A stretch of 47,336 bases of DNA, from the NCBI GenBank assembly GCA_035258765.1, contig DATFWZ010000733.1:1-47336 (forward strand), in the 5' to 3' direction. Under the pieces are notes generated by a model, which saw only the letters and a list, made by a program, of their open reading frames with translations, was not told where the DNA came from and ran no database searches. Numbering within the stretch: the stretch's first letter is position 1; every line of letters begins with the position of its first letter. The DNA comes from Gemmataceae bacterium (GTDB taxonomy: Bacteria; Planctomycetota; Planctomycetia; Gemmatales; Gemmataceae). The position numbers and the translations under genes were made by a program. Positions 27,333-43,922 of the stretch are shown here, piece after piece.

Positions 27333-28216
27333 CGGCGAGGTCCGGTCTCGTCGGGGTGCGGTGTCAAGGTGTGCCGAGGCGAGGAGAGTTCGCGCGTCGG
27401 CCTCCCGGGCCTAAGGGTGGGGGCTATCTTTACCGTCCGGGTGTGAGGATTATGTGTCGGCCGAAGGGAGTTTTCCCAAAGACTCGCGGCATGCGTTGTG
27501 GACCAGACCGCCAGTCCGCACGGAACTGCTGGCGCGCCCGCCACTTGCCGGGCCGGGGCGGCCGCCCGCCAAGGCGCGCGGGGACCAATGATTTTCTCGA
27601 CATTACGGTGCGTCAATCGATCAACGAATCTTGATATGTAGTGTCCTCATTGGATACTCGGGGGCGGCCGTGAGTCTCTTCAATTCTTCATCCGCCGGCT
27701 AACTGCCGGTCCGTGGATCGGTTGCGTCCGGCACTCGGTGGCCGGTCGGGGCGAGGCGAAGAATCCATGTCACAGGTTCCACGGGATTACGTTTTTACAC
27801 GGGTAGAGCGGGCGACGTCGGCGGAGAGACCGCCCCCGGTCCGGTGCTCGCGCGCCGGCCCGGGCACACCGCCCATGCGCCCTGACGCGCCGGAGACGGC
27901 ATGTCGAACGGGATTCACACACCGGACACGGATTCTTCCGGTAACCCCCGGGGCAATCTACACCCGACCGTGGCTAAGCTTCCCCGCTGTCGACGTCGCG
28001 AATTCGCCCGGATCGCCCTGCCGCTGTAGTCGGCACCTGAGAACGGACACCAGGCACTCGGCCTCGGGCGCATCCTCCCCTGGGCTACCTGCCTCCTCGC
28101 CGTAACCCCTTGACGCCCCGCCGACCGCGGCGGGCCCGCTATCGGACTGCCTGTGCGCTCGCTGGTCGGACCCAACGGAACAGAGCACCCCTCGCAAGAC
28201 CACACGGAGAGCGGCG

Positions 28217-31200
28217 ATGGCCCGGAAGACCTCGACGAAGCGGCTGGACCGGACGATCAATCGACGGAAGCGGGCGACCCGCGACCGATTCGCCGCCCGG
28301 CGGCCTCGACTCCGATTCGACAACCTGGAAGCCCGCGAGATGCCGGCCGCCTTCAGTCCGGGGAACCTCATCGTCCTTCAGGCCGGCGACAACAACCAAT
28401 ACGCGACGCAGGCTCCGCTCTACCTGAATGAATTGACCCCGGGCGGCAGCTCGGTTCAACAGGCCGCAATCAACAATACCAACGCCGTGGGCGGGACCGG
28501 CAATCAGCCGATCACCATCGACCTGACGGCCGCGGCTGGCAACGGTCAGCTGAACCGCACCTACGACGGGGCCGGACTCGTCTTCGGCGGCGTCGACTCG
28601 GGCGTGAACAACGGCGGGTACACGCCGCCCCAGTCACCCACGGGGAATGCGAACCGCGTGATCGCCGTCGTCGGCAACGACCCCGCGGCTGCCACCTTCG
28701 TCAACACCACGACCTACGGCCCGTTCTACGTCGGCGACGACAACCGCGGCGGGGTTGCCGAGGGCCTGACCGGCCCGGTCTGGGCGTTCGGCCATCCAAA
28801 CCAAGCCGGCGGGGCCGTCTCCCAGGGCGTCCTCTACTTCCCCGGGCCGAACGGGGACGGATCGCTACAGCCGCCGGGCACGGCCGGCATCACCTCCCAG
28901 AGTGGCGTCCAGGTGTCCGGCCAGACCAACATCCGGGGCGGGTTCATCGGGTTCGACAACCGGGTGTACTGGACGACCGCCGGGTCCACCAGCCTGGGCC
29001 TGGCGGGGGTCTACACGTCTACCGTCAAGGCCCTGCCGACAGACAACTCCCCCGGTAACGACCAGCCGATCGTCAAGGCCCTGTTCGCCGCCTCCAAGGT
29101 GGGCGGGATGTACCTGGCCGACGTTAACGGCGACGGGGTCCTGGACAACGGCGACCGGATCTACCTGAACGACGACGGGACGGTCGGCGGGGCCGGGACC
29201 GGCGGTCTGTACATGGCCGTGTTTGACACGACCCGGTGGGGGACTCCGGTGACGGGCCAGGCTGCCGGCTGGAGCCCGATGGTCCGGATCGCCGAAGGCG
29301 TAATCGACGCCCAGCCGACCCCGCAGAATACCGCCCAGCTTCGCGGCCTGGCCGGCACCGTCCTGGCCAACAGCAGCGTCCAGTTGTACGCCAGCGAGTT
29401 TGACAACGTCGCCGGAAACAACAGCTACGTGCTTGGCTGGAACGACGCCACCGGCGGCGTCTTCCGGGTCCAAAGCGCTTCGATCAGCGGCACGACTGCG
29501 ACCATTACCCTGTCCGAAGCTGTCCCGGCCGCGATCCGCGGTACGACCACCTGGCTGTCGGTCAACTCGGTCGGCAGTGGCAGCGGCACCTTCCCCACCG
29601 CCGGCGGCTACAACGGCGTCTGGAACGCCACGGTCAGCGCCGACGGTCTCAGCTTCACGTACACGAACACCAACCCAGGCCTGACCAATCTGAGTGGCAG
29701 CGCCATCGGGAACGGGACGGTCGGCCAGTGGCTCAACACCGGTGCGGTCGGCGGGGTGCTCGACCCGCAACCGGTGCCCGCGGCCTCCCAGATCATCCAG
29801 ACATTGGCCGACGGCACCTTGGCGGCGAACCCGGCCAAGGCCCAGAAGGCTCTCCGCGGTGTGGCCTTCGCCCCGGTCGCGGCCACGACGCTAAGCAGCC
29901 TCGCCGTGGATGGCCTGACGTCGGAGACTGTCCCCCCCAATACCTCAGTTACTTTCAGCGTGCACGTGGCGAACCCCCAGGCGGGGGTGACTCTGACCGG
30001 CCTCAAGGTCACTTTTGTCGACGTGACCACAAACACCGCGCTCGGCCAGGGGACGATCAACGCCAGCGGGGACGCGTCGCTGGCAATCCCGGTGGTCGGT
30101 CAGCACATCGTCAAGGCGTACTTTGCCGGCGGCGGGGCTCAGGCTCTCGCCCCGGTCACGACAGCTTCGACCGTCACCGTGAACGCGTCCGGGGCAACCG
30201 CCTCGTCCACTTCCCTAGCCGTGACCATCGGCGGCGCAGCGACCACCCAGGCCGCCATCGGCCGGGCGGTCACGCTGACCGCCACGGTCACCTCCGGGGC
30301 GACCGGGACCGTCAGCTTCCGCAACGGCACCACCTTGCTCGGCAGCGCGACCATCAGCGCCGGCTCGGCCGTCCTGACCACGTCGTTCTCCGTCGCCGGC
30401 CCGGCCAGCATCACCGCCACGTACAACGGCGACGCCACTTTCGCCACCAGCTCCAGCGGCGCGGCCTCCTTGACGATCGGGAACAACGCCACTGCAGCCA
30501 TCACGACATCGGCGAACAACGTCGCCGTCGGCGCCACCCCGACTTACACCGCGACCCTGACCGGGCCGCTCGGGACCGTGGCCGGGACCGTTCAATTCCT
30601 CCTGGACGGCGTCAACCTGGGCTCGGCCCAGACGCTCAATGGCAGCGGCTCGGCGTCGGTTACCAGCACGGCCCTGACGGCCGGCAGCCACGTCGTCACG
30701 ATCAAGTTCACCCCGGCCGCCACCAGCCCGTATAACGCGTTCAACGTCGATACCGTGACCGCGGCCAACGGGGTGGCCCTGATTGAGACGGCCAGGCAGG
30801 CGCTGACCCCCGGGAATCTGCTCGCCGTCCAGCGGGGCGACGGCACCACCAACCTGGGAAGCTCGGGCTACCTCGTCTTCCTCGACGAATACCGGCCGGA
30901 CGGCACATTGGTCCAGCGGATCGCCCTGCCCAACGCCGATAGCGGCACCACGCACGCCTTGCTGTTGAGCGGTCAGAACGGCGCAGAAGGCCTGCTCCAA
31001 CAGTCCGGTAACGGCCAGTACGTGACCATCGTCGGGTACGACGTGCCGGTTGGCCAGCAGTTTGTCACCTCGACCCAGCCGTACCAGTTCGGCCGCACCA
31101 TTGCCCGCATCGACGCGGCCGGGAACGTCGACACCAGCACCAGCATCACGACCAGCCAGACGGCGATCACGGCCGCGACTTGGGCCGGCGGCGTCGCCAC

Positions 31201-34200
31201 GATCACGGCGGCCAACACCCTCAAGGTGGGCGACCCGGTGACGGTGTCGGGGGTGACGCCGGCGGGCTTCAACGGGACGTTCACGGTCTCCGCGGCCACC
31301 GCGAGCTCGTTCACCTACGCCCTGGCCACCAACCCGGGTGGGGCCGGCACCGCGTTCGGCACGGCCACCGGCCCGTCGGTGCCGTTCAACCCGGAAGACG
31401 TGGTCACCAACGACGGAACTGGGTTCTGGATCGCCAGCAGCACCGGGACGGGCGACACGGTCGACAGCGGCATCCTGTTCGCCCCGCTCGGGGCCTCGAC
31501 GGCCAAGCAGGTGGGCCCGATCAACCACGGGGCCGCGTCAATCGCCATCTATGGGACCGGCGCGAGCGCCCAGCTCGCGGTGGTCAACCGCGGGGCCGGC
31601 GAACTGGGCGTGCCGCAGGGCCTGGCGACTGTGGGCACGGGCTTGCCCCAGACCGGGCTCGGCGTCCAGGCCATCACCACCCTGGTGAACGACGGGACCG
31701 GCACCGTGACCGTGACGCTCGGGGCGGCCCCGAACTTTACGGCCGGAAACCAGGTCGTGATCTCCGGCGCGTCGGTCGCCGCGTACAACGCCGCCTGGCA
31801 GGTGACCGGTGTCAGCGGGAATACGTTCACTTTCTCGGGCGCCCCGGCCGGGGCGGGAAGCGGCACCGGCGGGACCGCGACCGCCAACCAGCTGCTTGCC
31901 AACTTCCCCAACCTGGAGACCGAGTACGAAGCGGTATTCCCGACCGGCCGGCAGCCCGAACAGTTCGTCTTCCTGAACACGAATGACGGCAGCACGAACA
32001 ACCCGAACCTGGCCTACCTGGCCGACCAGGCGTACGGGCTACTCAAGTTCTGGAAAGCCAATGATGGCAACTGGCACCTGGGCCAGCTCGGGTCGCATGC
32101 CTTCGGGCAGAAGCTGGTGTTCGCCGGCGGGGCTACCGGGGTCATAGCGACCATCGTCAACCCGGGCACTCCGCAGGCAAAGGTCAACATCTTCGTCACC
32201 GGGAGTAACGTCCAGCAGGCCAACCCGAACCAGATCGCCGTCTTCCAGGACCAGAATGGGGCCCCGGCGGGCACGTCCGGAACGGGCGTGGACCAGGGCT
32301 TCAGCTCGGGCAATTTCAACACGCTGGCATTCGTCGGCGGCACGCCGGGGCTAGGGACGCCGGCCAGCCCGAACGGGAACATGAACTTCGCCGGGCTGTC
32401 GTTCGTCCCTGGCTTTGTGAGTGGCAACCTGGTGGTGGACCGGGTCGGCACCGGGACGGGCACGCTGTCGAGTAGCGCGACGGCCGGCTTCCTCGACCAG
32501 TACGACCCGACGCAGCCCAACCAGACGGCCACCAAGGGGTCGGTCGCTCTGCCGACCGGCGGCGACGTCTCGACGATCACGGGGGCGACCTGGTCGAACG
32601 GGGTCACCACCATCACCGGTTTCAACGACTACAAGGTCGGCCAGCAGGTGACCGTCTCCGGGGTGACCCCGAGCCTTTACAACGGGACGTTTATCGTCTC
32701 GGGTTTGACCGGCACCACCACTTCGACGATTACCGGGGCCACGTGGGCGAGCGGCCAGGCCACGTTTACCGCGAACAACAGCTACGTGGTCGGCCAGACC
32801 GTCACGGTGACCGGGGTAAATCCGGGCGGCTACAACGGGGCCTGGACGGTGACGTCCGCGACTGCCACGACCTTCACGGTCGCGATGCCGAATAACCCGG
32901 GCACATTTGTGTCCGCCCCGGCAAACGACGCCGTCGGCAGTGCGACCGGGTTCACGTACACGCTGCCGCTCACGGCCGTCGCCACGGCCTCTCGGGCCAC
33001 CGACGCGGTGAATATCACCGCTGCCACCTGGGCGAACACTAACGGCGGCACGGTCACCATCACCGCTGCCAACACGTTCACGGTCGGGCAGACGGTCATC
33101 ATCTCGGGGATCACCCCGACCGGCTACAACGGGACGTTCGTGATCGCGTCCGCAAACGCCACGAGCTTCACCTACCTGCTGCCGACCAACCCCGGCACCG
33201 CCACGGTGACCGGGGCCAAGGCCACCCCCGCGTCTCCGGTCACCAACCTGGCCGACGGGGCAACGTCGACTGCCATCACGGCGGCGAGCACGGCGAGCCA
33301 GACGGCCAACATCGCCTCGGTCAGCAAGGCGGCCGTTGCCGTAAACATCACCGCGGCGAGCTGGTCGGCCGGCAAAGTGACCATCACCGCGGCCAACAGT
33401 TTCGTCGTGGGCCAGGCGGTCACCATCGCTGGCATCACCCCGGCGGGCTTCAACGGCACGTTCACGATTGCAACCGCCACCAGCTCAAGCTTTACGTACA
33501 ACCTGGCGGCGGACCCGGGCACGCCTGTCACCTTTGCGTCCACCGCGACCGCGACGGGATTCACGGCCACCATCACCACCGCCGCCAGCCATAGTTTCAT
33601 CGTCGGCCAGAGCCTGACGATCGCGGGGATCACCCCGGCCGGGTACAACGGGACCTACACGATCGCGTCGGTGCCGTCCGCCACGACGTTCACTTACAAC
33701 TTGCTCGGCGGTGACCCCGGGGCGGGGACTTCGACCGGCACGGCCGCCGGCCTGTTCGCCACGATCTCAGCCAGCACCGGGGTGAACACCGCCCTGGTCG
33801 GGCAGAGCGTAATCGTCGCCAACGTCAACGGGAGCATCAACGGCAACTACAACGGGACCGTCAAGATCACGGCAGCGACGGCCACCACGCTGACGTACGC
33901 CGTCCCCACAGACCCGGGCACGGCCGACCTGACCGCCGGCCCGACCGTCACCTTCAACACGGCGACCGTCACAGCGGCCAACTCGTACGCGGCCGGCAAC
34001 AGCGTCGCCGTCGCCGGCGTCACCGGGGCCACGACGTTCAACGGCGCGTTCCCGGTCGTCTCGGCCAGCCCGACGAGCTTCACTTACTACCTCCCATCGA
34101 ACCCAATCGCGGGCACCAAGTTCGGGGCGGCCAACGTCCTGGGCGCCGTGACGGAAAGCGGGTCGGCGACCGGCGAAGGCTACCTGAGCAACTCGGCCGA

Positions 34201-37200
34201 CGGGCACAGCCTGGTCGTCGCCGGCTACAACCAGACGCCCGGCGGCAGCACGTCGGCCAACAACACCTCGGTCGGCGTAGTCAACCCGGCCGGCGTAATT
34301 GACGTGACCACGCAGATGCCCTCGCAGGGCGGCAGCGTCCGGGCGGTGGCCTCGGCCGACGGCCTGGGGATGTGGGTAGCCACCAACACCGGCATCCGGT
34401 ATGTGCCGTTCGGCAATACCCCGGCTCAGACGGCGATTTCGGCGGCGAGCTGGTCGCCCACCGGTGGCGGGACGGTCACGATCAGCGCGGCCAACAACTT
34501 CGTCGTCGGGCAACTCGTTGCCATCACGGGTGTGACGCCGAGCGGCTACAACGGGGCGGTCACGATCCTGTCGAGGACCGCGACGAGTTTCACGTACGCC
34601 CTCGCCACGAACCCGGGGACCGCGACGAACCTCAGTAGCGCGTTTGTCCAGCCGCTCCCGACCCTGATCACCAACGAGATTGCCTCGGCTCAGGGCCAGG
34701 CGCCCACGGTGGTCGAGATCGGCGCCAGCAACCCGTCCGCCCTGGGAGCCGTCCCGGGCCAGCTGGTCGGCACGGCCGGGGCGCAATTCCAGAACAACGG
34801 CGTTCCGTCGGTGGACGGGCCGTTCTACATCGGCAGCGGCCTCGGCCAGTCCGCCGGGCAGGCGGTCAGCATTCTTGGCACCGGGACGGATCCGAACTGG
34901 CCGGCCGTCCGCGACATATTTAACAACTTCCCGAGCACCAACCAGATCGCCATCAGCCCGAGCGGCAACACCATCGTGGTGGCGGACAGCCGAACCGATA
35001 GCAAGGGCGGTATCCTGGTTTATTTCCAGGCGCTCCAGAATAGTTGGGTCCGGCTGGCCAACCTGCAGCAGGACAACTTCGCCATCACCGCGGCGAGCGA
35101 GCCGGTCACCACGGCCAACATCTCGGCGGTCAGTTTCAACAGCGCGACCATCTCAGCCGCGAACTGGATCAACGGCACCGTGACGATCACGACGTCCGCG
35201 GCCCACGGCTTCGCTGTCGGTCAGAAAGTGATCATCAACGGGTTCACGAACGCCGGTTACAACGGCCAGTTCACCATCGCCTCCGTGCCCAGCTCGACGA
35301 CCTTCACCTACGCGGTCGCCGCGAATCCCGGTACGCCGAGCTTCACCAGCCCGACGGCGACGCTGGCCAACGTGACGGTGACAACGTCGGCCGCTCACAA
35401 CTTCGTCGCGGGCCAGAACGTGACCATCGCCGGGGTGTCGCCGGCGGCGTACGTCGGTACGTTCGCAATCGCGTCCGTGCCGGATTCCACCCACTTCACG
35501 TACGTGCTGACCGCGACGACGAACCCGGGCAGCCCGACGCTGACCAGTGCGACTGCCACGGTCAACTCGTCGGCGACCATTACCACTTCGTCGCCGGTCA
35601 ACTTCACGGTCGGCCAGACGGTGTCGATCTCGGGCGTTGACCTGCCGGCCTACAACACAAATAGCGCTGTCATCACCAGCGTGGCTCCCAGCGGGCTGTC
35701 GTTTACCTACAACCCCGGCTTCAGCAATCTGGCCAGCTCCGGGCCAGGCGTATTCGGTGCTTTTGCCAACGGGCTGGACGGCGGGTTCCGGGCCATCACG
35801 GCCGACTGGAGCAACCCGACTCACCCGGTCCTGTACGCGACCACGACGGCGAGCAGTGGGAACCGGCTCTTCCGGATCCCAATGACGCTGGATGAGACCA
35901 CCGGCACGGCGTCACTGGGCACCCCGGTCCTGCTGGCCACCGCCCCGGCCAACACCGCGTTCCGCGGTGTCGCCTTCGCGCCGACGAACCCCGGGACCAC
36001 CGCGAGCACGACCAGCCTGTCGGTCTCCGGCAGTCCGGGCACTTACGGGGCGGGGGTGAATTTGACAGCGACGGTGACGACCGGCGCCACCGGCTGGGTC
36101 AGCTTCCGGACGACGGGGGGCGTCGAGATCGGGGCCGCCCCGCTCAGCGGCAATACCGCGACGCTGTTCACCACGGCGAATCTGCCGCCCGGTGTCTACA
36201 CCAACGGCATTGTCGCCGTATACACGGGCGACAACACGTTCGCCCCGAGTACGTCGGCGGCGCAGTCGGCGACCATCAACAAGGCGGACACCTCAGTCGG
36301 GCTGGCGTTGACCCCGCCGACTGTCGGAACTGGCCAGACCGAGACGCTCGCGGCAACCGTCACGCCAACGTCAAGCGGTGCCCCGACGGGCACGGTCACC
36401 TTCACCGATACCACGACGAGCACCGTGCTGGGCACGGCCCCCGTGACCCAGGTCATCGTGAATCAGGGTGGCTTCCCGGTGATCACGTTCCAGGCCGTGC
36501 TCGCGACCACGTTTGCGGTCACGGGCAGCCACAGTATCAGTGTTGCGTACAGCGGGGACAGTAACTTCAATAGCAGCACCGGGACGAACACGCTTCAGGT
36601 CGTCCAGTCGACGACGACCACGGTGACGTCTGACAATGCCAACCCGGGCAACAATAATCAGACGCTGAATCTGACGGCCAAGGTGACGGCCTCGAGCGGG
36701 ACCCCGGCAGGTTCGGTCCAGTTCTACGACGGCTCCGTCCCGATCGGGAGCCCGGTAACCCTGAACGTCAGCGGCGTGGCGACGCTCGCGGTCAAGACTG
36801 CCGCCGTCCAGTCGGTGACGATCAAGAGCATCTCGCAATCGACGTCCGCAGGGACGACCACGGTCACGGTCACGACCAACACGACGAACCCGTTCACCGT
36901 CAGCCAGTCGGTGACCATCGAGGGCGTGGCGACCGGCGCCTCGCCCGGGAACCCGGTCCAGGGCGGCTACACGGGCGGCTACAACGGCACGTTCACGGTG
37001 GCCAGCGTCAGCGGGAACCAGTTCACACTGGTGAACAACGCCGCCGCCGGCCTGCCGACCGACACAGTCGGCGGCATGGCGATCGGCCGGGGCGTGTTGA
37101 CTCCCGGCATGCACTCGCTCAGCGCGATCTACAACCCGGGTGCAAACGCCTTCGGCAGCAGCAACGGCATCCACCAGCAGTCTGTACAAACGATCGCCTT

Positions 37201-40200
37201 CGGGGCCAACGATCAGTTCATCGAACGGCTGGGCGACGGCCTGACCGCCCTCAACACCCAGCCCCCGCTGACTTTCAACGGGTCCGTCGGGGCGACCAAC
37301 TTCATCGACGAGTTCACCGCGGCTGGTGTTCTGGTCCAGTCGATCGCGCTGCCCAGTGCCGATTCGCAGAGCTTCGCGATTGCCAGCATCAGCGGGGATG
37401 GGACGACCGTGACGGTGACGACGTCGGCTGCCAACGACCTCGCGACCGGTCAGAAGGTGACCATCGCGGGCGTATCGGGCGGGACCGGCACGTTCAATGG
37501 CGACTTCACAATCACCGTGACCAGTAGCACGACCTTCACCTACTTGGCTTCCGGCAACGGGACCGGGACCGCCACGGGGGCCACGGCCCAGGGGGTAGTC
37601 CACGCGGTGGTCGGCCACGGACAGCAGTCCACCACCGGCCAGGTGACCCTGTCCGGGGACGGGGCATACCTGTTCGTGACCGGGTACGACCAGAACCCGA
37701 ACCCGGCGAGCCCGGGCTATGGCGCGCTCGCGTCGGTGTCGGCCAATACCACTCCGCGGTCGATCGCCCGGATCCGGTTCGACGGCCTGATCGAAACCGA
37801 GGCGTTCACCGCCGGCTCGACCGGAATCGCCACCACCGGCAACTTCAACGCCATCTACAGCCCGGATGGCAGCCGGTTCTATGTCGGCAACGCCGGTACC
37901 GGCAGCATCTACTACTTCTCGTCGTTTAACACGTCCGCCACGCCGCAGGGCAGCAACAGCCTCATCTCGGCGGGCGGTAACTTGTTGAGCACGCCGGGTT
38001 ACAGCGTCATTGGCCTGGAGTCGTACGGCGGCAATCTGTTCGTGATCGGCGGCGGCAGTGGCGCCGGCACCAACTTCCGGGTCGCACAGGTGGGCACCGG
38101 ATTCCCCACGACCAACACGGGGCTGTCCGTCACGCAGCTGCCCGGCATCCCGACCGACACAACAACGCTTGCCCAGCCGATCTTCTTCCCGGTGGACGCC
38201 TACTTCACCCACCTAAACGGCGCCGGCACCGCACTAGACACCATCTACGTTTCCGACAACGGCAGGAACTTCGGCCAGGGGTCGATCACCAAGTGGTCGC
38301 TGGTCGCCGGCAACTGGGTGGAGTCGACGGTCTCGCTGCCGTACTCGAACACCACCGAGCAGCTCGGCTTCTACTATCTGTCCGGCGCCACGAGTGGGAA
38401 TACGGTCACTCTGTACACGAACTACGGCAACGGCGGGAATGCCGACTTCGGGCCGGGCTTCCTGTATTCGATGACCGACGCCTCGGGCTACAACGTCAAC
38501 CCGGGCATCCCGATCTCCGCGGCGAGTTGGTTGGCCGGGACGGTCACCATCACCGCGAACAACAACTACGCCGCCGGGCAGTTCGTGACCATTACCGGCG
38601 TGGCGAATGCAGCCTACAACGGGCGGTTCGTCATCACCTCGGCGAACGCCACCAGCTTCACCTACGCCCTGGCCTCGGACCCGGGTGCGTCCGGCAGCGT
38701 GACTGGGGCCAAGGCCCTGTCGATCAACACGGTGTCCAAGGTGGCCCCCGGCCCGGTCGGCGGGCCGTGGTACGGCAACGAGACGTTCCGCGGCGTTGCG
38801 GCCGCCGCGAAGGCGATCGCCACGACCTCGACCCTGACGCTGAACGGTATCTCGCCGACGACAGCTGGCCTGTCCATCGAGATCGGGTACAACCCGACGG
38901 TCACGGCTCAGGTCACCCCGGCCGGAGGGCCGGTGTCCAACCTGAGCGGGCTGACCGTTCAGATCCTCGATACCAGCAACGGCAACGCCGTGGTCGGCAC
39001 TGGCACCCTGGACGCAACCGGCAAGGCGACGATCACCCTGACGACCGGCACCGGGGCCGGCCAGTTGAACACCGGCAGCCACAACCTGGTCGTCTCGTTC
39101 GCCGCAGCGTCCACGTTCGCCGGCAGCCAGTCGGCCCCCCAGAATCAGGTGATCGACGCCGTCTTCAAGGTCGACACCCTGGTCCAGACGGCCACCGGGT
39201 ACGTGGCCACGTTCAACGCCTTGGTCAACCCCGCCAACCTGAACATTAACGCGGCCACTGCACCGTCGGCCAAGCTCGTGACCGGGTCGACCCCGGTCGG
39301 CGGGTCGGTCGTGTTCGACAGCGTCCCGACCCAGGCGACGTTTGTCGGGACCGGGACGTTCGTCACGGGTGTGCCGCTGGCCAAGACACTGACCGGCGGC
39401 GCCAGCTACACCGCCACCGTGGCCGGGACCGGAACCAACGCCTTCTTCGACACCCTCGGCCACGTCCTGGGGAGCAGCACCAGCACCGGCGGGTCCGATT
39501 TCATCAACACCTTCACTTCCTCGAACAGCACGACGGCCGCGATCGTTAGCGCCCCGTTCCTGGCCCGCGGATTCCACCAGGCGGTTAACCTCCCGGCGAA
39601 CACCTCCAGCGGGCTGCCGATCAGCATCAGCATCCCGGCCGGCGGGTCGGCCGTGACGTCAGCCTCCTTCGACGTCTTCTTCAACACGGCGGACCTGACG
39701 GTGACCGGCGGGTCGATCACGGCCGCGGGGTTCACCGGCACAGTGACCGTCGTCACCCCCGGCCAGGTCCACATCACCCTCAGCGGCGGCAGCCTGGCCG
39801 CCGGCACCACGACGACCGTGGCCAGCCTGACCGCCAGCGTTCCCGACACCGCCCCGTACAAGAACAAGGAGATCCTGGACGTCCGCAACATCTCGATCAA
39901 CGGCGGGACGAACAACGGCCTGGACGGCAGCGCGGTCCACGTCGCGGCCTTCGTCGGCGATACCGACGGGTCGAAGTCCTACACCGCCCAGGACGCGTTC
40001 AACGTCAACCAGGTGGCGGTCGGGACGGCCCCGGGCTTCTCGGCTTACCAGTTGCTCTCCCCGATCATCATCGGCGACACCAACACGGATGGGGCGGTGA
40101 ACGCCCAGGACGCGTTCAACGCCAACCAGGTGGCGGTCGGCAACACGAGTGCGGGCATCCCGGCCCTGCCGACCTTCAACATCACCACCGCGACCGAAGC

Positions 40201-43200
40201 CGGCACGACGGTGACCATCACGACCTCGACGGCGCACAACTTCACCGTCGGCGAGCAGGTCACGATCAGCGGCGTGTCGGTGTCCGGGTACAACGGCACG
40301 TTCGCGATCACCGGGGTGACGGCCACGACCTTCACCTACACCGCCGCCGCCGGCCTGGCCAGCGGCACCGGGGGGACCGCGGCGGCTGCCAGCCCGGCCG
40401 CCGGCGGCCCCGACCCGAAGCTGTATTTCCTCGACGTGTCCGCAACGCCCGGTTCCACGGTCACCGTGCCGGTCTTCCTGGACATCAACGACCCGGCCGG
40501 GCTCACTTACAACTCGGACGACATCGGGATCATCTTCGACCCGACGAAGTTCTCCGTGTCCAACGTCCGCAGCGGTAACTACTCCAGCACCCTGATGCCG
40601 GCGTCCAGCATCAGCACGGCCTCGAACGTCGATAACGTGGCCGGCACGATCCGGATCGGCCAGTTCTACAATCTGGCCACCGCCCCGTTCCTCCCGAACG
40701 GGACGAGCGGGCAGATTGTCCTGATGGACGTCACAGTCCTCGCCGGGGTTACGGCGGGGACGAACACGCCGCTGAATTTGGCCGCAAACGTCTCCGCCAC
40801 CGTCACCGAGGTCAACGGCGGGGCGGCAACGCTTAATCCGGCCCCGACCAACGCCTCGAACGACGCGGTAGACGCCACGTTCCACGTCGTCGCCCCATCC
40901 GCCACCCTGTCCTTCCCGAACGCCAGCAGCAGCGGCGGGTCGACGATCACGGTCCCGGTCAACCTGACGTCTGGGCCGGGCGGGTTCACCTACAACTCCG
41001 ACGACCTGGGCGTCACGTTCGACCCGACCAAGCTCCAGGTGCAAAGCGTCAGCAGCGGCGACTACCCCGGCATCGGGTCGACTAACATCAGCACTGCGTT
41101 TAACATCAACAACACCGCTGGCACGATCCGGATCGGCCAGTTCTTCAACCAGGCCACCGCCCCGTTCCTGCCCGCCGGAACGACTGGGCCCATCGCCAAC
41201 ATCACGTTCATGGTCCTGTCCTCGGCCCCGGCCGGGCCGACGTTCCTGGACCTGGCCCAGAACGTCTCCTTGACCTTCACCGACGTCAACGGCGGGGCGA
41301 TCGTTCTCAACCCGGCGCCGACAAACGCCACCAACGATCCGGGGGTGGACGGCGTCTTTACCGTCACCGTCCAGCCGAATCAGCCGCCGTTCGACTCGGT
41401 GCCCGCAGCCTCGGCGATCCCCAAGACGCTATTCAACCCGCAGGCCATCACCGGGCTGACCGACCCGACCCCGAACGTGCTGACGCTCTCGGGCAGTAAT
41501 GCGATCGTGGTGTCCGACCCGGACGCCGGGACTGCGAACGTGACGACCACCGTCAGCCTGACCGGGAGCCCGGTCCTCGGATCGACCGGCCCGGTCGGGA
41601 TCCTGACCCTGGCCAGCACCACTGGTTTGACGGTCAGCGGGAACAACACGGCGTCAGTCACGCTGACCGGCAAGATCACCGACATCAACACGGCCCTGAA
41701 TGGGCTGAAGTACACGCCGGGCGCCGGGTTCTTCGGCACCGCGACCCTGACCGTCTCGACCAACGACAACGGCAACAGCGGCTTCGGCGGGCCGATGACC
41801 GATACCCGGTCCACGAGCATGACCGTGGTGGGGCTGTTCTTGAGCGAGATCGACCTGAACTCGAACAGCACCCTGAGCGCGCCGAGCGCGAACCAGTACC
41901 TGGAAATACTCTCGTCGGTGCCGAACTACACCATCCCGAGCGGGGTGTTCGTGGTCGGGATCGAGGGGAACAATTCGCAAGTCGCGGACGCGTTTGGCAA
42001 TAGCACAACCAACAACCCCGGGGCGGTGCAAGACGTTTTCAACCTGACCGGGTTCACCACCGGATCGAACGGCTACCTGGCGCTGCTGGAGAAGGGCCAG
42101 GCGTACTCCTCCGCCGCGGGGGTCGTCAACTCGGCCGGGAATGTCGTGACCAACAGCGGCACTCAGTCGGGCTTCGGGAACGGCGGCGGGTCGAGTGTAT
42201 TCGGGTCGCTGACCGGGGTTCACACCGGTAAGGACCAGAACGCAGTGGGAGTCCGTCTGGGGACCAACCCGGACCTGCCGGGCGACGGGGCGACCGCCGC
42301 CGGGGAACTCTCCTGGGATATGGAACAGGGCTCGGCCAGCTACCTGCTGATCCAGGCCCCGAGCGCCCCGGTGGTGCAGACCTCCACCACCACGGCGACA
42401 GACATCGACGGCAACAACGATGGCGTCCCCGACGGCACGGCCTACGCCTCTTGGAACGTGATCGACGGCGTCGGCGTTCTGGCCGCCCCGCTCTCCCCGA
42501 CGCTCGGAGGGACGTACACCCAGCTCGGGAACGACTTCACCTACGCCCCGCTGACATTCAAGGACAGCACGAACACCGGCGCCGTGCTGACCGGCTCGAA
42601 CCTGGTGACCGTGCCATTCACGGCGAGCTACCTCGGACGGATCAGCCAGTTCACCGGGTCGTCGTCGGCCGACTGGTTGGCCAGCGTCCCGACGGGCTCG
42701 GCCGGCCTGTTCACGCTGGGGGCTGGGACCGCGACCTCGAACACGAACTACTCCGGCCAGAGGCTCAACCACATCGGCGGCCCGAACTTCTGGGCCGACC
42801 AGATGAAGGTGGTGGTGAACGACGGGACAAACGCCCAGCACGCACAGGTCGGCGAGTTGACCCTGACCTTCGCGGCGCCCGTCACCCTGGCCGGGACCCC
42901 GGACCGGTTCCAGATCACCTCCGCGGTAGATAACGGTGCCACGCTCAATACCGCGACGGTCACCACCTCGGCCGCCCACGACTTCCAGGTCGGCCAGACG
43001 ATTAACATCATCGGGGTGACGGGGACCGGTTGGAACGGTAACAAGGTGATCACCGCCCTGACCTCCACCACGATCACGTTCGCCCGGGGATTAATCACCG
43101 CGAACGGGACCACCGGCGCCTCTTCGTTCGCCCAGGCCACCGGGTCGCTGAACACCAGCTTCCGGAACATTTTCCAAGTGCTCTCGACGGCGAGCATCAG

Positions 43201-43876
43201 CACGCTGAGCGAAGCGGGGACGACGGTGACCGTCACAACCACGGCCCCGCACAACTTCTCGACCGGCGAGCAGGTGACGGTCAGCGGGGCCAGCGTCTCG
43301 GGGTACAACGGGACCTTCACCATTACCGGGGTGACGGCCAACACGTTCACCTACACGGCCGCCAGCTCGGGGCTGGCCCCAGGCACCGGTGGCACGGCAG
43401 GCGTCCCGGTGAACCTCACGTTCACCATCCCGACCGGCGGGGGGACGTATATCAGCGCCACCGGGGTGGCAAACAACGTCACCGTGCTGGTGGTTCGGTT
43501 CCTGGCCACTGACAATCTGACGGTCAACTTCACGAACGCCGATCCGGGCGGGAACAAGGTGGGCCTGGCCGACGGCAACTACTTCCTGAAGACAGACGCC
43601 ACCAAGGTGACCGACTCCCAGGGCAAGCAGCTCGACGGCGACCGGGACGGGAACTTCGGCGGGAATGGAAACGACGAGTTCTGGCGGCTGTACGGGGACT
43701 TCGACGGCAATCGCCGGGTGGACGGGTCCGACAACCGGATCTTCAACTCGACGTTCAACACTGGTACCGGCAACGCGGCCTATTTGTGGTACGCCGACTT
43801 CGACCTGAGCGGGCTGATCGACACGACCGACCGGACCCAGTTCCGGAATCGGCTGTTCACGATCCTGAATCCGTGA
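28217..43876 (+). CDS. Giant (5,219 aa) modular cell-surface/extracellular protein: propeller-like supermodules, ~70-aa beta-domain repeats, Ig-like arrays, cohesin-like and dockerin modules, lamin-tail-like domain
   Basis: A single uninterrupted ORF. The ATG is preceded by GGAGAG at 5 nt. Composition is strongly biased to T/G/A/S/N/V. Recognisable modules are listed as separate features below. Confidence 0.9.
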   Translation: MARKTSTKRLDRTINRRKRATRDRFAARRPRLRFDNLEAREMPAAFSPGNLIVLQAGDNNQYATQAPLYLNELTPGGSSVQQAAINNTNAVGGTGNQPITIDLTAAAGNGQLNRTYDGAGLVFGGVDSGVNNGGYTPPQSPTGNANRVIAVVGNDPAAATFVNTTTYGPFYVGDDNRGGVAEGLTGPVWAFGHPNQAGGAVSQGVLYFPGPNGDGSLQPPGTAGITSQSGVQVSGQTNIRGGFIGFDNRVYWTTAGSTSLGLAGVYTSTVKALPTDNSPGNDQPIVKALFAASKVGGMYLADVNGDGVLDNGDRIYLNDDGTVGGAGTGGLYMAVFDTTRWGTPVTGQAAGWSPMVRIAEGVIDAQPTPQNTAQLRGLAGTVLANSSVQLYASEFDNVAGNNSYVLGWNDATGGVFRVQSASISGTTATITLSEAVPAAIRGTTTWLSVNSVGSGSGTFPTAGGYNGVWNATVSADGLSFTYTNTNPGLTNLSGSAIGNGTVGQWLNTGAVGGVLDPQPVPAASQIIQTLADGTLAANPAKAQKALRGVAFAPVAATTLSSLAVDGLTSETVPPNTSVTFSVHVANPQAGVTLTGLKVTFVDVTTNTALGQGTINASGDASLAIPVVGQHIVKAYFAGGGAQALAPVTTASTVTVNASGATASSTSLAVTIGGAATTQAAIGRAVTLTATVTSGATGTVSFRNGTTLLGSATISAGSAVLTTSFSVAGPASITATYNGDATFATSSSGAASLTIGNNATAAITTSANNVAVGATPTYTATLTGPLGTVAGTVQFLLDGVNLGSAQTLNGSGSASVTSTALTAGSHVVTIKFTPAATSPYNAFNVDTVTAANGVALIETARQALTPGNLLAVQRGDGTTNLGSSGYLVFLDEYRPDGTLVQRIALPNADSGTTHALLLSGQNGAEGLLQQSGNGQYVTIVGYDVPVGQQFVTSTQPYQFGRTIARIDAAGNVDTSTSITTSQTAITAATWAGGVATITAANTLKVGDPVTVSGVTPAGFNGTFTVSAATASSFTYALATNPGGAGTAFGTATGPSVPFNPEDVVTNDGTGFWIASSTGTGDTVDSGILFAPLGASTAKQVGPINHGAASIAIYGTGASAQLAVVNRGAGELGVPQGLATVGTGLPQTGLGVQAITTLVNDGTGTVTVTLGAAPNFTAGNQVVISGASVAAYNAAWQVTGVSGNTFTFSGAPAGAGSGTGGTATANQLLANFPNLETEYEAVFPTGRQPEQFVFLNTNDGSTNNPNLAYLADQAYGLLKFWKANDGNWHLGQLGSHAFGQKLVFAGGATGVIATIVNPGTPQAKVNIFVTGSNVQQANPNQIAVFQDQNGAPAGTSGTGVDQGFSSGNFNTLAFVGGTPGLGTPASPNGNMNFAGLSFVPGFVSGNLVVDRVGTGTGTLSSSATAGFLDQYDPTQPNQTATKGSVALPTGGDVSTITGATWSNGVTTITGFNDYKVGQQVTVSGVTPSLYNGTFIVSGLTGTTTSTITGATWASGQATFTANNSYVVGQTVTVTGVNPGGYNGAWTVTSATATTFTVAMPNNPGTFVSAPANDAVGSATGFTYTLPLTAVATASRATDAVNITAATWANTNGGTVTITAANTFTVGQTVIISGITPTGYNGTFVIASANATSFTYLLPTNPGTATVTGAKATPASPVTNLADGATSTAITAASTASQTANIASVSKAAVAVNITAASWSAGKVTITAANSFVVGQAVTIAGITPAGFNGTFTIATATSSSFTYNLAADPGTPVTFASTATATGFTATITTAASHSFIVGQSLTIAGITPAGYNGTYTIASVPSATTFTYNLLGGDPGAGTSTGTAAGLFATISASTGVNTALVGQSVIVANVNGSINGNYNGTVKITAATATTLTYAVPTDPGTADLTAGPTVTFNTATVTAANSYAAGNSVAVAGVTGATTFNGAFPVVSASPTSFTYYLPSNPIAGTKFGAANVLGAVTESGSATGEGYLSNSADGHSLVVAGYNQTPGGSTSANNTSVGVVNPAGVIDVTTQMPSQGGSVRAVASADGLGMWVATNTGIRYVPFGNTPAQTAISAASWSPTGGGTVTISAANNFVVGQLVAITGVTPSGYNGAVTILSRTATSFTYALATNPGTATNLSSAFVQPLPTLITNEIASAQGQAPTVVEIGASNPSALGAVPGQLVGTAGAQFQNNGVPSVDGPFYIGSGLGQSAGQAVSILGTGTDPNWPAVRDIFNNFPSTNQIAISPSGNTIVVADSRTDSKGGILVYFQALQNSWVRLANLQQDNFAITAASEPVTTANISAVSFNSATISAANWINGTVTITTSAAHGFAVGQKVIINGFTNAGYNGQFTIASVPSSTTFTYAVAANPGTPSFTSPTATLANVTVTTSAAHNFVAGQNVTIAGVSPAAYVGTFAIASVPDSTHFTYVLTATTNPGSPTLTSATATVNSSATITTSSPVNFTVGQTVSISGVDLPAYNTNSAVITSVAPSGLSFTYNPGFSNLASSGPGVFGAFANGLDGGFRAITADWSNPTHPVLYATTTASSGNRLFRIPMTLDETTGTASLGTPVLLATAPANTAFRGVAFAPTNPGTTASTTSLSVSGSPGTYGAGVNLTATVTTGATGWVSFRTTGGVEIGAAPLSGNTATLFTTANLPPGVYTNGIVAVYTGDNTFAPSTSAAQSATINKADTSVGLALTPPTVGTGQTETLAATVTPTSSGAPTGTVTFTDTTTSTVLGTAPVTQVIVNQGGFPVITFQAVLATTFAVTGSHSISVAYSGDSNFNSSTGTNTLQVVQSTTTTVTSDNANPGNNNQTLNLTAKVTASSGTPAGSVQFYDGSVPIGSPVTLNVSGVATLAVKTAAVQSVTIKSISQSTSAGTTTVTVTTNTTNPFTVSQSVTIEGVATGASPGNPVQGGYTGGYNGTFTVASVSGNQFTLVNNAAAGLPTDTVGGMAIGRGVLTPGMHSLSAIYNPGANAFGSSNGIHQQSVQTIAFGANDQFIERLGDGLTALNTQPPLTFNGSVGATNFIDEFTAAGVLVQSIALPSADSQSFAIASISGDGTTVTVTTSAANDLATGQKVTIAGVSGGTGTFNGDFTITVTSSTTFTYLASGNGTGTATGATAQGVVHAVVGHGQQSTTGQVTLSGDGAYLFVTGYDQNPNPASPGYGALASVSANTTPRSIARIRFDGLIETEAFTAGSTGIATTGNFNAIYSPDGSRFYVGNAGTGSIYYFSSFNTSATPQGSNSLISAGGNLLSTPGYSVIGLESYGGNLFVIGGGSGAGTNFRVAQVGTGFPTTNTGLSVTQLPGIPTDTTTLAQPIFFPVDAYFTHLNGAGTALDTIYVSDNGRNFGQGSITKWSLVAGNWVESTVSLPYSNTTEQLGFYYLSGATSGNTVTLYTNYGNGGNADFGPGFLYSMTDASGYNVNPGIPISAASWLAGTVTITANNNYAAGQFVTITGVANAAYNGRFVITSANATSFTYALASDPGASGSVTGAKALSINTVSKVAPGPVGGPWYGNETFRGVAAAAKAIATTSTLTLNGISPTTAGLSIEIGYNPTVTAQVTPAGGPVSNLSGLTVQILDTSNGNAVVGTGTLDATGKATITLTTGTGAGQLNTGSHNLVVSFAAASTFAGSQSAPQNQVIDAVFKVDTLVQTATGYVATFNALVNPANLNINAATAPSAKLVTGSTPVGGSVVFDSVPTQATFVGTGTFVTGVPLAKTLTGGASYTATVAGTGTNAFFDTLGHVLGSSTSTGGSDFINTFTSSNSTTAAIVSAPFLARGFHQAVNLPANTSSGLPISISIPAGGSAVTSASFDVFFNTADLTVTGGSITAAGFTGTVTVVTPGQVHITLSGGSLAAGTTTTVASLTASVPDTAPYKNKEILDVRNISINGGTNNGLDGSAVHVAAFVGDTDGSKSYTAQDAFNVNQVAVGTAPGFSAYQLLSPIIIGDTNTDGAVNAQDAFNANQVAVGNTSAGIPALPTFNITTATEAGTTVTITTSTAHNFTVGEQVTISGVSVSGYNGTFAITGVTATTFTYTAAAGLASGTGGTAAAASPAAGGPDPKLYFLDVSATPGSTVTVPVFLDINDPAGLTYNSDDIGIIFDPTKFSVSNVRSGNYSSTLMPASSISTASNVDNVAGTIRIGQFYNLATAPFLPNGTSGQIVLMDVTVLAGVTAGTNTPLNLAANVSATVTEVNGGAATLNPAPTNASNDAVDATFHVVAPSATLSFPNASSSGGSTITVPVNLTSGPGGFTYNSDDLGVTFDPTKLQVQSVSSGDYPGIGSTNISTAFNINNTAGTIRIGQFFNQATAPFLPAGTTGPIANITFMVLSSAPAGPTFLDLAQNVSLTFTDVNGGAIVLNPAPTNATNDPGVDGVFTVTVQPNQPPFDSVPAASAIPKTLFNPQAITGLTDPTPNVLTLSGSNAIVVSDPDAGTANVTTTVSLTGSPVLGSTGPVGILTLASTTGLTVSGNNTASVTLTGKITDINTALNGLKYTPGAGFFGTATLTVSTNDNGNSGFGGPMTDTRSTSMTVVGLFLSEIDLNSNSTLSAPSANQYLEILSSVPNYTIPSGVFVVGIEGNNSQVADAFGNSTTNNPGAVQDVFNLTGFTTGSNGYLALLEKGQAYSSAAGVVNSAGNVVTNSGTQSGFGNGGGSSVFGSLTGVHTGKDQNAVGVRLGTNPDLPGDGATAAGELSWDMEQGSASYLLIQAPSAPVVQTSTTTATDIDGNNDGVPDGTAYASWNVIDGVGVLAAPLSPTLGGTYTQLGNDFTYAPLTFKDSTNTGAVLTGSNLVTVPFTASYLGRISQFTGSSSADWLASVPTGSAGLFTLGAGTATSNTNYSGQRLNHIGGPNFWADQMKVVVNDGTNAQHAQVGELTLTFAAPVTLAGTPDRFQITSAVDNGATLNTATVTTSAAHDFQVGQTINIIGVTGTGWNGNKVITALTSTTITFARGLITANGTTGASSFAQATGSLNTSFRNIFQVLSTASISTLSEAGTTVTVTTTAPHNFSTGEQVTVSGASVSGYNGTFTITGVTANTFTYTAASSGLAPGTGGTAGVPVNLTFTIPTGGGTYISATGVANNVTVLVVRFLATDNLTVNFTNADPGGNKVGLADGNYFLKTDATKVTDSQGKQLDGDRDGNFGGNGNDEFWRLYGDFDGNRRVDGSDNRIFNSTFNTGTGNAAYLWYADFDLSGLIDTTDRTQFRNRLFTILNP
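29881..30780 (+). other. Array of about three bacterial Ig-like (group-3-like) domains inside the giant protein
   Basis: Contains units such as TSLAVTIGGAATTQAAIGRAVTLTATVTSGATGTVSFRNGTTLLGSATISAGSAVLTTSFSVAGPASITATYNGDATFATSSS. This is the classic x-LTATV-x-GTVxF-x-G-x-A-x-L-x-G-x-ITAxYxGD pattern. Boundaries are approximate. Confidence 0.6.
32576..34140 (+). repeat. Tandem array of seven ~70-aa coding repeats (consensus I-T-[AG]-A-[TS]-W-x-G-x-V-T-I-T-x(4-6)-F-x-V-G-Q-x-V-T-I-x-G-[VI]-x-P-x-G-[YF]-N-G-T-[FW]-x-[IV]-x-S-x(4-5)-F-T-Y-x(4-5)-P-G)
   Basis: Read directly from the translation. Example: ITAASWSAGKVTITAANSFVVGQAVTIAGITPAGFNGTFTIATATSSSFTYNLAADPGTP. Further dispersed copies start near 29483, 31166, 31673, 34436, 36821, 37379, 38513, 40181, 42914 and 43196. 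Confidence 0.75.
35150..35745 (+). repeat. Second tandem array (three copies) of the same ~70-aa repeat
   Basis: Contains ISAANWINGTVTITTSAAHGFAVGQKVIINGFTNAGYNGQFTIASVPSSTTFTYAVAANPG, then ..NFVAGQNVTIAGVSPAAYVGTFAIASVPDSTHFTYVL.., then ..NFTVGQTVSISGVDLPAYNTNSAVITSVAPSGLSFTYNPG. Confidence 0.7.
35995..36825 (+). other. Second array of about three Ig-like domains
   Basis: Contains TSLSVSGSPGTYGAGVNLTATVTTGATGWVSFRTTGG..., LAATVTPTSSGAPTGTVTFTDTTT...SISVAYSGDSNFNSS and LNLTAKVTASSGTPAGSVQFYDGS... Boundaries are approximate. Confidence 0.6.
39535..41370 (+). other. Cohesin-like 1, internal two-segment dockerin (39950-40145), one ~70-aa repeat, cohesin-like 2, cohesin-like 3
   Basis: Dockerin Ca-loops are DTDGSKSYTAQD plus helix AFNVNQVAVG, and DTNTDGAVNAQD plus helix AFNANQVAVG. 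Cohesin-like units are LYFLDVSATPGSTVTVPVFLDINDPAGLTYNSDDIGIIFDPTKFSV...GTIRIGQF...IVLMDVTVLAGVTAGT and its paralog TLSFPNASSSGGSTITVPVNLTSGPGGFTYNSDDLGVTFDPTKLQV...GTIRIGQF...IANITFMVLSSAPAG. Confidence 0.6.
41826..42360 (+). other. Lamin-tail-like (LTD) domain candidate
   Basis: The segment LFLSEIDLNSNSTLSAPSANQYLEILSSVPNYTIPSGVFVVGIEGNN...SNGYLALLEKG resembles the ISEI...EFIEL...L opening and closing strands of LTD domains. The end is poorly defined. Confidence 0.4.
43691..43873 (+). other. C-terminal type-I-like dockerin of the giant protein
   Basis: There are two EF-hand-like loops, each followed by a helix: DFDGNRRVDGSD-NRIFNSTF and DFDLSGLIDTTD-RTQFRNRL. They fit the D-x-[DN]-x-[DNS]-x(3)-D-x-x-D spacing of dockerin repeats. 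Confidence 0.7.
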
Positions 43877-43894
43877 TGAACGGATCGACCTGTC

Positions 43895-43922
43895 GCCCGG
43901 TGCCGGTGCACCGGCACCGGGC
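43895..43922 (+). terminator. Perfect 28-nt GC-rich palindrome 19 nt after the giant-gene stop (possible terminator or RNA-stabilising hairpin)
   Basis: GCCCGGTGCCGGTGCACCGGCACCGGGC is its own reverse complement. It would form a 12-bp stem with a 4-nt loop. No U-tract follows, so the terminator function is uncertain. Confidence 0.35.

Follow-up and report, generated by a model that had tools for sequence, protein, structure and literature searches.

A cysteine-free giant protein from a Gemmataceae bacterium, predicted to be a surface scaffold of four related beta-propellers with barrel-bearing loops

A stretch of 47,336 nucleotides from a Gemmataceae bacterium (Planctomycetota; assembly GCA_035258765.1, contig DATFWZ010000733.1, positions 1 to 47,336), here called the window, contains a single giant gene whose product is the subject of this analysis. 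This protein appears to be an exported, multivalent surface or matrix scaffold that belongs to the known class of giant proteins with the N-terminal motif LxLExLExRxxP, a reading to which we give a probability of about 60 %. The polypeptide would consist of consecutive all-beta modules, each folding on its own, among them four propellers that carry barrel-decorated loops and are separated by Big_3_5 immunoglobulin (Ig)-like spacers. The gene and its four propeller units (U1 to U4) are located as follows; positions in the protein are given in amino acids (aa), and the bit scores are those of the external profile described below.

28217 to 43876, + strand: giant gene, a single open reading frame (ORF); 5,219 aa, 520 kDa, isoelectric point 4.6, no cysteine (Cys), no transmembrane-like segment
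28346 to 29884 (aa 44-556), + strand: propeller unit U1, 34.4 bits, one barrel, the most divergent copy
30800 to 32422 (aa 862-1402), + strand: propeller unit U2, 172.8 bits, two barrels
32408 to 35992 (aa 1398-2592), + strand: propeller unit U3, 113.8 bits in three colinear pieces, 11 barrels
37184 to 38818 (aa 2990-3534), + strand: propeller unit U4, 161.6 bits, two barrels

Each unit is framed by an opening strand (SPGNLIVLQAGD at aa 47 in U1, TPGNLLAVQRGDG at aa 864 in U2, VSGNLVVDRVGTG at aa 1401 in U3 and GANDQFIERLGDG at aa 2996 in U4) and a closing strand (LRGVAFAP at aa 546-553, NFAGLSFVP at aa 1390-1398, AFRGVAFAP at aa 2581-2589 and TFRGVAAAA at aa 3523-3531, respectively). The original prediction, made from the letters of the window, had used these strands to define four related supermodules for which it could assign no name, and all of them were found where it had located them. 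Since a BLAST of the whole protein against itself gave the identity match alone, tiled BLAST and hidden Markov models (HMMs) were used instead. A non-circular test of relatedness relied on an HMM of 352 positions that was built only from 28 distant, barrel-free external proteins. This model matches all four units colinearly, with U2 scoring highest and U1 lowest. The three pieces of U3 cover profile positions 7-52, 43-270 and 272-338, and U1 is colinear over positions 6-296 and 322-338. With the barrels spliced out, BLASTP aligns U2 with U4 over 316 aa (E 2e-13), U1 with U2 over 48 N-terminal aa (E 4e-5) and U3 with U4 over 72 aa (E 4e-4), the remaining pairs being weaker (E 0.02-0.14). Judged by their sequences, the four units represent a single homologous module, as had been proposed.

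The host domain comprises about 350-400 aa and belongs to a large family. A search with the spliced U2 returned 47 proteins, and a profile of 21 sequences extended this to at least 742 proteins at E<=1e-5. Most members have 375-700 aa and consist of one domain copy together with a PEP-CTERM tail, a type IX secretion system (T9SS) tail, a TIG domain or Big_3_5. Their source names include Humisphaera, Hymenobacter, Chitinophagaceae, Polyangia, Chloroflexi, Binatia, Solirubrobacteraceae and Betaproteobacteria, so that by these names the family spreads over Bacteroidota, Planctomycetota, Chloroflexota, Myxococcota and others. Within it barrels are confined to close relatives of the protein described here. 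The best-conserved family motifs, GNLVVYRVGDG...VFLDEY at the N-terminal and NTAFRGVAFAP at the C-terminal side, are the opening and closing strands mentioned above. Neither Pfam nor NCBIfam has a model that matches the domain, in agreement with the earlier remark that the supermodule has no assignable name, and no PDB sequence relative was found with either of two profiles. A scan of genome contigs with aa 44-1402 gave only distant Pelobium matches, which concern the Ig part. One member from a JGI metagenome (P0025, 653 aa) contains a Pfam Phytase-like domain (PF13449) at aa 1-170 (E 3e-43) followed by the unnamed propeller at aa 327-653; because both are found in this protein, they must be distinct domains that are able to co-occur. 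P0025, P0020 and P0032 are rich in Cys (14-31 residues), unlike most of the family.

Structure prediction points to a propeller, one of the two folds (propeller or beta-sheet blades) that had been guessed from the sequence. An AlphaFold2 (AF2) model of U2 including both barrels (aa 862-1402, alignment of 140 sequences) reached a mean predicted local distance difference test score (pLDDT) of 81.5 and a predicted template modelling (TM) score of 0.80, with the host segments above 90. In Foldseek searches against the PDB this model retrieved beta-propellers only, the matches being weak (best E 3e-4). The insert-free homologue P0065 was modelled with higher confidence (pLDDT 92.2, predicted TM score 0.88, 22 strands) and gave 265 PDB matches at E<=1e-3, all listed ones being propellers. 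The best of them are the Bacteroides ‘putative 6-phosphogluconolactonases’ 4qrj, 3scy and 3fgb (E 6e-7, TM 0.42-0.45); BtuG surface lipoproteins are also among the matches, and the highest TM values (0.47-0.52) belong to the six-bladed YWTD propellers of LRP2, LRP4 and LRP6. According to these models the host domain is a beta-propeller without a close solved relative and probably has six blades, as is suggested by its 22-24 strands and by the best TM values to six-bladed targets. Against viral structures the U2 model gave weak multi-domain matches, among them a phage protein annotated as ‘E1 FCCH domain containing’ (E 3e-4), from which no evidence of fold identity is drawn.

The second peculiarity of the protein is a small inserted domain of about 65 aa. 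An iterated HMM seeded from eight copies detects 20 copies in total, each with E 1e-13 to 4e-28, and their consensus reads xIxxATWxxGTVTITAANxFxVGQxVTIxGVxPxGYNGTFxIxSxxxTSFTYxLxxNPG. Insertion sites were mapped from the barrel flanks via the external profile onto the P0065 model, and the loop numbers in the following lines refer to strands of that model.

29465 to 29698 (aa 417-494), + strand: barrel 1, in U1, loop between strands 19 and 20
31163 to 31354 (aa 983-1046), + strand: barrel 2, in U2, loop between strands 6 and 7; modelled by AF2 with five strands
31670 to 31873 (aa 1152-1219), + strand: barrel 3, in U2, loop between strands 12 and 13
32573 to 34126 (aa 1453-1970), + strand: barrels 4-10, in U3, loop between strands 3 and 4; a tandem of seven barrels and their linkers, 518 aa
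34433 to 34636 (aa 2073-2140), + strand: barrel 11, in U3, loop between strands 9 and 10
35147 to 35752 (aa 2311-2512), + strand: barrels 12-14, in U3, tandem in a loop near strands 17 and 18
36827 to 37069 (aa 2871-2951), + strand: barrel 15, within the second Ig-like array
37376 to 37582 (aa 3054-3122), + strand: barrel 16, in U4, loop between strands 3 and 4; the seven-barrel tandem of U3 shares this site
38510 to 38704 (aa 3432-3496), + strand: barrel 17, in U4, loop between strands 20 and 21
40178 to 40381 (aa 3988-4055), + strand: barrel 18, between the internal dockerin-like module and cohesin 2
42932 to 43393 (aa 4906-4970 and 4993-5059), + strand: barrels 19 and 20, before the C-terminal dockerin

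Sixteen of the 20 barrels are located inside the four propeller units, where all of them sit between predicted strands at seven distinct loop sites; the other four are found elsewhere. The claim that copies of a domain of about 70 aa are inserted into the units is thus confirmed. In the U2 model the five strands of barrel 2 have pLDDT 63-73, and barrel 3 is poorly modelled.

The barrels can be connected with the Pfam family E1_FCCH (PF16190), which is matched with 31.3 bits summed over the copies in the tile aa 1601-2600 (cut-off 29.5). In the other tiles it reaches 15.9-27.9 bits, and taken singly 4 of the 20 copies match (best E 1.3e-5), whereas the relative P0154 scores 102 bits. Among phage protein families phrog_9998 is matched by 16 of the 20 barrels (best 6.5e-11), families of virion-structural and tail-fibre proteins by 9-12 and a major tail protein family by four. 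In the PDB the barrel profile matches the insertion domain of P22-like phage coat proteins (6mnt, 8skg) with E 0.011. On siphovirus tail tubes FCCH domains, described as Greek-key barrels of six strands, point outward (PMC13576161). On the strength of these profile matches we regard the barrels as kin of outward-facing phage virion and tail domains. An exhaustive search of 1.84 billion cluster representatives with the barrel profile retrieved 7,725 proteins at E<=1e-3, of which 153 reach E<=1e-30; the top matches are giants of 3.6-6.6 kaa (thousand aa) with up to 19 copies. This means that the domain is widespread and that a class of giant multi-copy proteins exists. From one to five propeller units are present in 12 of the 150 best barrel-bearing proteins; the strict leader pattern occurs in six of these 12, and a looser LE.R version was seen by eye in three more.

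Export is suggested by the N-terminus, where the following motif was found.

28310 to 28345 (aa 32-43), + strand: export motif LRFDNLEAREMP, a regular-expression match to LxLExLExRxxP

It departs from LxLExLExRxxP at two positions, having F for L and D for E. The pattern was proposed as an export signal specific to planctomycetes, and in Tuwongella immobilis eight of the ten longest proteins (4,016-10,566 aa) bear it and are regarded as surface-exposed (PMC8567305). No transmembrane segment is apparent over the full length of the protein (best Kyte-Doolittle mean over 19 aa 1.44), and a PEP-CTERM tail was not found in it, the C-terminus being a dockerin-like module that ends with ...RNRLFTILNP. 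The protein is probably exported and located on or beyond the cell surface.

Its composition had been described as free of Cys, poor in charged residues and dominated by T, G, A, S, N and V, which the residue counts fully bear out. There is no Cys among 5,219 residues; T (15.2 %), G (12.7 %), A (12.6 %), S (8.9 %), V (8.9 %) and N (7.3 %) sum up to 66 %, and K, R, D and E together contribute 7.1 % versus 9-26 % in 15 other genes of the window. The net charge is -96. As those 15 neighbours contain 1.05 % Cys on average, a protein of this length should have about 55, and the probability of none is about 1e-24. Of 153 propeller-family proteins 64 likewise lack Cys, as do 36 of the 150 best barrel-bearing proteins, so its absence is not peculiar to this gene. 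Many beta-rich proteins that bacteria secrete to their surface, S-layer proteins and autotransporter passengers among them, typically lack Cys. Zero Cys is far from chance, yet it is probably a property of the Cys-poor extracellular domain families that were used. An enrichment in N-glycosylation sequons was considered and dismissed, since the count of 87 NxS/T sites equals the expectation from shuffled sequences (86.9 +/- 8.3).

A repetitive ORF of this size could in principle result from the mis-assembly of repeats or be a pseudogene in decay that is read as one frame, all the more as the source is a metagenome-type contig of 47 kb and the gene is highly repetitive at the domain level. This explanation is extremely improbable. 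The frame of 15.66 kb is uninterrupted, starts with ATG preceded by GGAGAG and has a GC content of 0.90 at third (GC3) against 0.55 at first codon positions (GC1), as is expected for a real gene in a genome of 67 % GC. DNA repeats within the ORF are at most 79 % identical, which makes repeat-driven mis-assembly unlikely because such copies are too diverged for collapse or mis-joining. Further, all four propellers are complete when compared with the external profile, fragments derived from short reads exist that are 99 % identical to parts of the gene, and colinear relatives are present on two independent metagenome contigs from other assemblies. The gene model is therefore upheld. Directly behind the stop codon a second in-frame TGA follows at 43877-43879, and 20 nt past the stop a perfect GC-rich palindrome of 13+13 nt (CCCGGTGCCGGTG/CACCGGCACCGGG) occupies 43896-43921; as it lacks a T-run it does not appear in the list of the terminator scan.

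The colinear relatives, on contigs L001 (6138-17361) and L004 (6309-18807), are 40-60 % identical and share the order U1-Ig-U2-U3-Ig-U4. They are split into four to six called genes by frame changes that are probably sequencing frameshifts in long-read assemblies. Because of this splitting the database proteins P0001 and P0004 are to be seen as fragments of giant genes. In the L001 relative the seven-barrel stretch (query aa 1402-1979) is missing, so that the number of barrels varies between relatives.

Between and behind the propellers the protein contains the following modules. The Pfam cut-offs are 35.5 bits for Big_3_5 (PF16640), 24.1 bits for Cohesin (PF00963) and 22.9 bits for type I Dockerin (PF00404).

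29885 to 30799 (aa 557-861), + strand: Ig-like array 1, three Big_3_5 stretches, 95.1 bits
35993 to 37183 (aa 2593-2989), + strand: Ig-like array 2, three Big_3_5 stretches, 94.2 bits, and one barrel
38819 to 39166 (aa 3535-3650), + strand: single Big_3_5 Ig-like domain, 34.6 bits
39167 to 39508 (aa 3651-3764), + strand: module without Pfam match
39509 to 39961 (aa 3765-3915), + strand: cohesin-like module 1, borderline (Cohesin E 6.4e-5, 23.6 bits)
39956 to 40171 (aa 3914-3985), + strand: internal dockerin-like pair of calcium loops, GDTDGSKSYTAQD... and GDTNTDGAVNAQD..., weak
40409 to 41365 (aa 4065-4224 and 4227-4383), + strand: two cohesins, Pfam Cohesin 63.3 bits
41384 to 41836 (aa 4390-4540), + strand: ‘VSDPDAG...INTALNGLKYTPGAGFFG’ module, weak Big_9 match (E 0.19)
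41837 to 42931 (aa 4541-4905), + strand: module of about 365 aa without Pfam match, earlier called LTD-like
43691 to 43855 (aa 5159-5213), + strand: C-terminal dockerin, borderline, with loops DFDGNRRVDGSD and DFDLSGLIDTTD, 22.7 bits

Ig-like arrays had been expected after units 1, 3 and 4, and they are indeed there with three, three and one Big_3_5 stretches. The same prediction had placed cohesin and dockerin modules in the C-terminal quarter. For the cohesins this holds: two of them are clear and 53 % identical to each other (self-BLAST E 1e-35). The dockerin calls are borderline at the C-terminus, where the score lies just under the cut-off, and weak for the internal pair. In the C-terminal module two canonical calcium loops of the type DxDxxxxxDxxD can be read. 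The ‘VSDPDAG’ module is possibly a Big_9 or cadherin-like Ig domain. An LTD-like identity of aa 4541-4905 found no support, as LTD (PF00932) is unmatched there; this region gave no Pfam match at E<=5, none in tile scans and no PDB sequence match, and it has a close homologue in P0211.

Cohesins and dockerins in one chain recall a cellulosome-like scaffoldin, in which the cohesins would recruit dockerin-bearing enzymes while propellers and barrels bind the substrate, and the protein would then be a platform for polymer degradation, not an adhesin. Two clear cohesins and a borderline one, together with two dockerin-like modules, fit this idea, and barrels of this kind accompany glycan-active phage proteins, for example as the sialic-acid-binding beta-barrel of endosialidase (PMC12632334). 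We nevertheless consider it distinctly unlikely, as the cohesins make up about 9 % of the protein only, no recognised carbohydrate-binding module (CBM) was detected in the Pfam scans and neither a dockerin-bearing enzyme nor a glycoside hydrolase adjoins the gene.

Upstream of the giant gene an exopolysaccharide (EPS) locus of the Wzx/Wzy type extends from 526 to 26702. It encodes glycosyltransferases (GT) of the families GT1, GT2 and GT4, a flippase-like protein, a Wzy with tetratricopeptide repeats (TPR), Poly_export, CpsB and a Wzz/tyrosine-kinase protein. Three consecutive paralogous genes at 10896-16086 (- strand) code for right-handed beta-helix proteins of the Beta_helix/NosD type with 591, 493 and 535 aa, which have low Cys, low charge and GC3 of 0.84-0.90 and may be secreted enzymes that modify or degrade polysaccharides. 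A gene for a trypsin-like serine peptidase (Trypsin_2, E 1e-16) is located at 19057-19713 (- strand) between the Wzy/TPR and Poly_export genes. The gap of about 1.5 kb at 26703-28216 separates the giant gene from a divergently oriented GT4 (WecA-like) gene and contains no ORF that matches a family and no Rfam match; the Rfam scan of the whole window was equally without match. At 27588-27658, in the only AT-richer patch of this gap, a divergent pair of sigma-70-like promoter matches was found (2 found versus 0.1 expected). If the + strand match of the pair is used, the giant gene has a 5' leader of about 560 nt.

Downstream, at 44010-44660, a gene for a Cys-free protein of 216 aa follows in which a signal peptide and a PEP-CTERM-type tail of the form IPEPG...RRLRR (IPEPGTLVLTGLFAAGLAAASIRRLRR) can be read. 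Its body has no Pfam match, and the tail is not scored by Pfam. The idea that it provides a cohesin-type anchor for the C-terminal dockerin was rejected, as no similarity to the cohesins of the giant protein is detectable (HMM score -3.4, BLAST E >=0.26). Two DUF1559/N_methyl genes with a type IV pilin-like prepilin motif lie at 44803-47265, and a small gene between them gives a weak match to Big_1/CarboxypepD_reg. DUF1559 expansions mark Planctomycetota, and these genes are consistent with a planctomycete origin; DUF1559 genes flank the giant-gene relatives on L001 and L004 too.

This setting between a 26-kb EPS locus and a PEP-CTERM gene had led to the suggestion of a matrix or holdfast-type adhesin. 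In such a reading the protein would bind and crosslink the polysaccharide of the upstream locus and would possibly be held by the PEP-CTERM neighbour. The location as such is correct; PEP-CTERM proteins are reportedly associated with EPS, as the title of one paper (PMC1569441) has it, and PEP-CTERM tails are frequent on single-domain members of the propeller family. The colinear relatives on L001 and L004, however, sit among DUF1559, TPR and tRNA-synthetase genes with no EPS adjacency, and because this adjacency is not conserved the linkage is weak evidence. Moreover, the distance to the EPS genes is about 1.5 kb with divergent orientation to the nearest, no exosortase gene was found in the window, and the presumed holder shows no resemblance to the cohesins. 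A specific partnership with the neighbouring EPS locus is therefore rather unlikely in our view; a matrix or holdfast adhesin is still a plausible suggestion.

We thus return to the exported, multivalent scaffold of the LxLExLExRxxP class. It would be extended on or beyond the cell surface, where barrels and propeller faces would offer many weak binding sites for ligands that are probably glycans. Because a membrane anchor is lacking, the cohesin and dockerin modules are proposed to tether it to partner proteins or to link its copies with one another. Several observations weigh against this picture. The leader (aa 1-43) is rich in Arg and Lys and has no hydrophobic core. One of the three cohesin-like modules and the C-terminal dockerin (E 1e-4) fall just short of their Pfam cut-offs, and the internal dockerin-like pair is weak (PDB dockerin 6kg9 E 0.1, Dockerin_1 E 0.16). 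The barrels were modelled in U2 with pLDDT of 46-73 only, and the missing EPS adjacency in the relatives has to be added here. As the propeller matches are generic, with TM not above 0.52, no ligand can be assigned by analogy with a solved structure. Finally, the four units frequently carry other residues where the family conserves a charged one (16 R, 68 E, 131 R, 171 R and 253 K of the profile). A shared catalytic site is disfavoured by this, and the idea of catalytic propellers was given up; nothing positive about binding follows from it.

In a bolder version propeller and nested barrels would form a ‘bottlebrush’ lectin module, and the whole would be a glycan-binding fibre of about 20 valences that polymerises or docks via its own cohesins and dockerins and organises the planctomycete matrix, the propeller representing an undescribed, phylum-spanning ‘choice-of-anchor’ surface family. 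The FCCH-like barrels would then have been co-opted from, or be shared with, phage virion proteins and have been multiplied inside the propeller loops. We give this version a low probability. If it were true, a roughly 20-valent polysaccharide-binding fibre would organise the extracellular matrix of a planctomycete.

The propeller family deserves curation, as it comprises at least 742 proteins with varied surface-sorting tags and still lacks a Pfam or NCBIfam model; it also has no solved relative that is detectable by sequence, its fold matches being generic propellers. The protein further presents an extreme case of nested insertion, with 16 barrels in seven loops of four propellers and up to seven in tandem within one loop, and is of use for the question of how surface proteins become so large and how loops cope with insertions. 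That the barrel is common to decoration domains of phage virions and tails would point to a role in ligand binding. The Cys-free trait, finally, can now be put in context as one shared by extracellular domain families and not special to this gene.

Comparison with known systems reveals partial similarities in several directions. With cellulosomal scaffoldins and non-cellulosomal cohesin-dockerin proteins it shares cohesins (63 bits) and dockerin-like modules in one polypeptide, but in contrast with scaffoldins it has no CBM and no enzyme partners nearby, its cohesins are a minor part and its dockerin scores are borderline. The nearest analogue in design is found in phage endosialidases (End_beta_propel, End_beta_barrel), where a small beta-barrel likewise accompanies a beta-propeller. 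In these enzymes the barrel is nested inside the propeller according to its Pfam entry. Whereas the enzyme has one nested barrel, the giant protein has 16, spread over seven loop positions and up to seven in tandem, and it lacks evident catalytic residues. End_beta_barrel (PF12195) is matched weakly by 2 of the 20 barrels (E 0.025), and End_beta_propel (PF12217) gave no match in the Pfam scan of the giant protein. Because the barrel matches are sub-threshold, the likeness is an analogy of design and neither a claim of membership nor a demonstrated homology. In the endosialidases of phages K1F and NF the propeller-associated barrel is a sialic-acid-binding site (PMC12632334).

A relationship in sequence exists with the E1_FCCH decoration domains of phage virions, i.e., those of the siphovirus tail tube (gp13/gp39) and the insertion of P22-like coat proteins (6mnt/8skg). 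It is based on Pfam E1_FCCH, on PHROGs 9998, 19630, 529, 701, 5838 and 584 and on the match to 6mnt. In both cases small barrels are added to a larger host domain, but here the gene is cellular with a chromosomal setting, there are 20 copies and the host fold is a propeller instead of a capsid or tail-tube domain. Homology over the whole domain connects the propellers with single-domain proteins such as P0065 (a ‘PEP-CTERM sorting domain-containing protein’ of Humisphaera sp.), P0038 and P0149 (T9SS-tailed, from Hymenobacter). They share the GNLVVxRVGDG...VFLDEY and NTAFRGVAFAP strands and are also poor in Cys. These proteins have a single, barrel-free propeller and end in a sorting tag, whereas the giant protein has four propellers, nested barrels and no tag, and its units conserve the charged residues of the family less well.

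A further comparison is with the giant planctomycetal surface proteins, which carry an N-terminal RRLxxExLExRxLLA/LxLExLExRxxP motif (Studholme et al. 2004, as cited in PMC8567305). The leader motif LRFDNLEAREMP, the great size, the repeated beta-domains including Ig-like ones and the planctomycete-type setting with adjoining DUF1559/N_methyl genes agree with this class. The giants of Tuwongella are described with trypsin, glucose dehydrogenase, Ig-like and integrin-beta/Calx domains, and a propeller with nested barrels is not mentioned among them (PMC8567305). The gene presented here can thus be considered as joining a known class of giant surface proteins, and its distinctive feature is the propeller building block with barrel-loaded loops.

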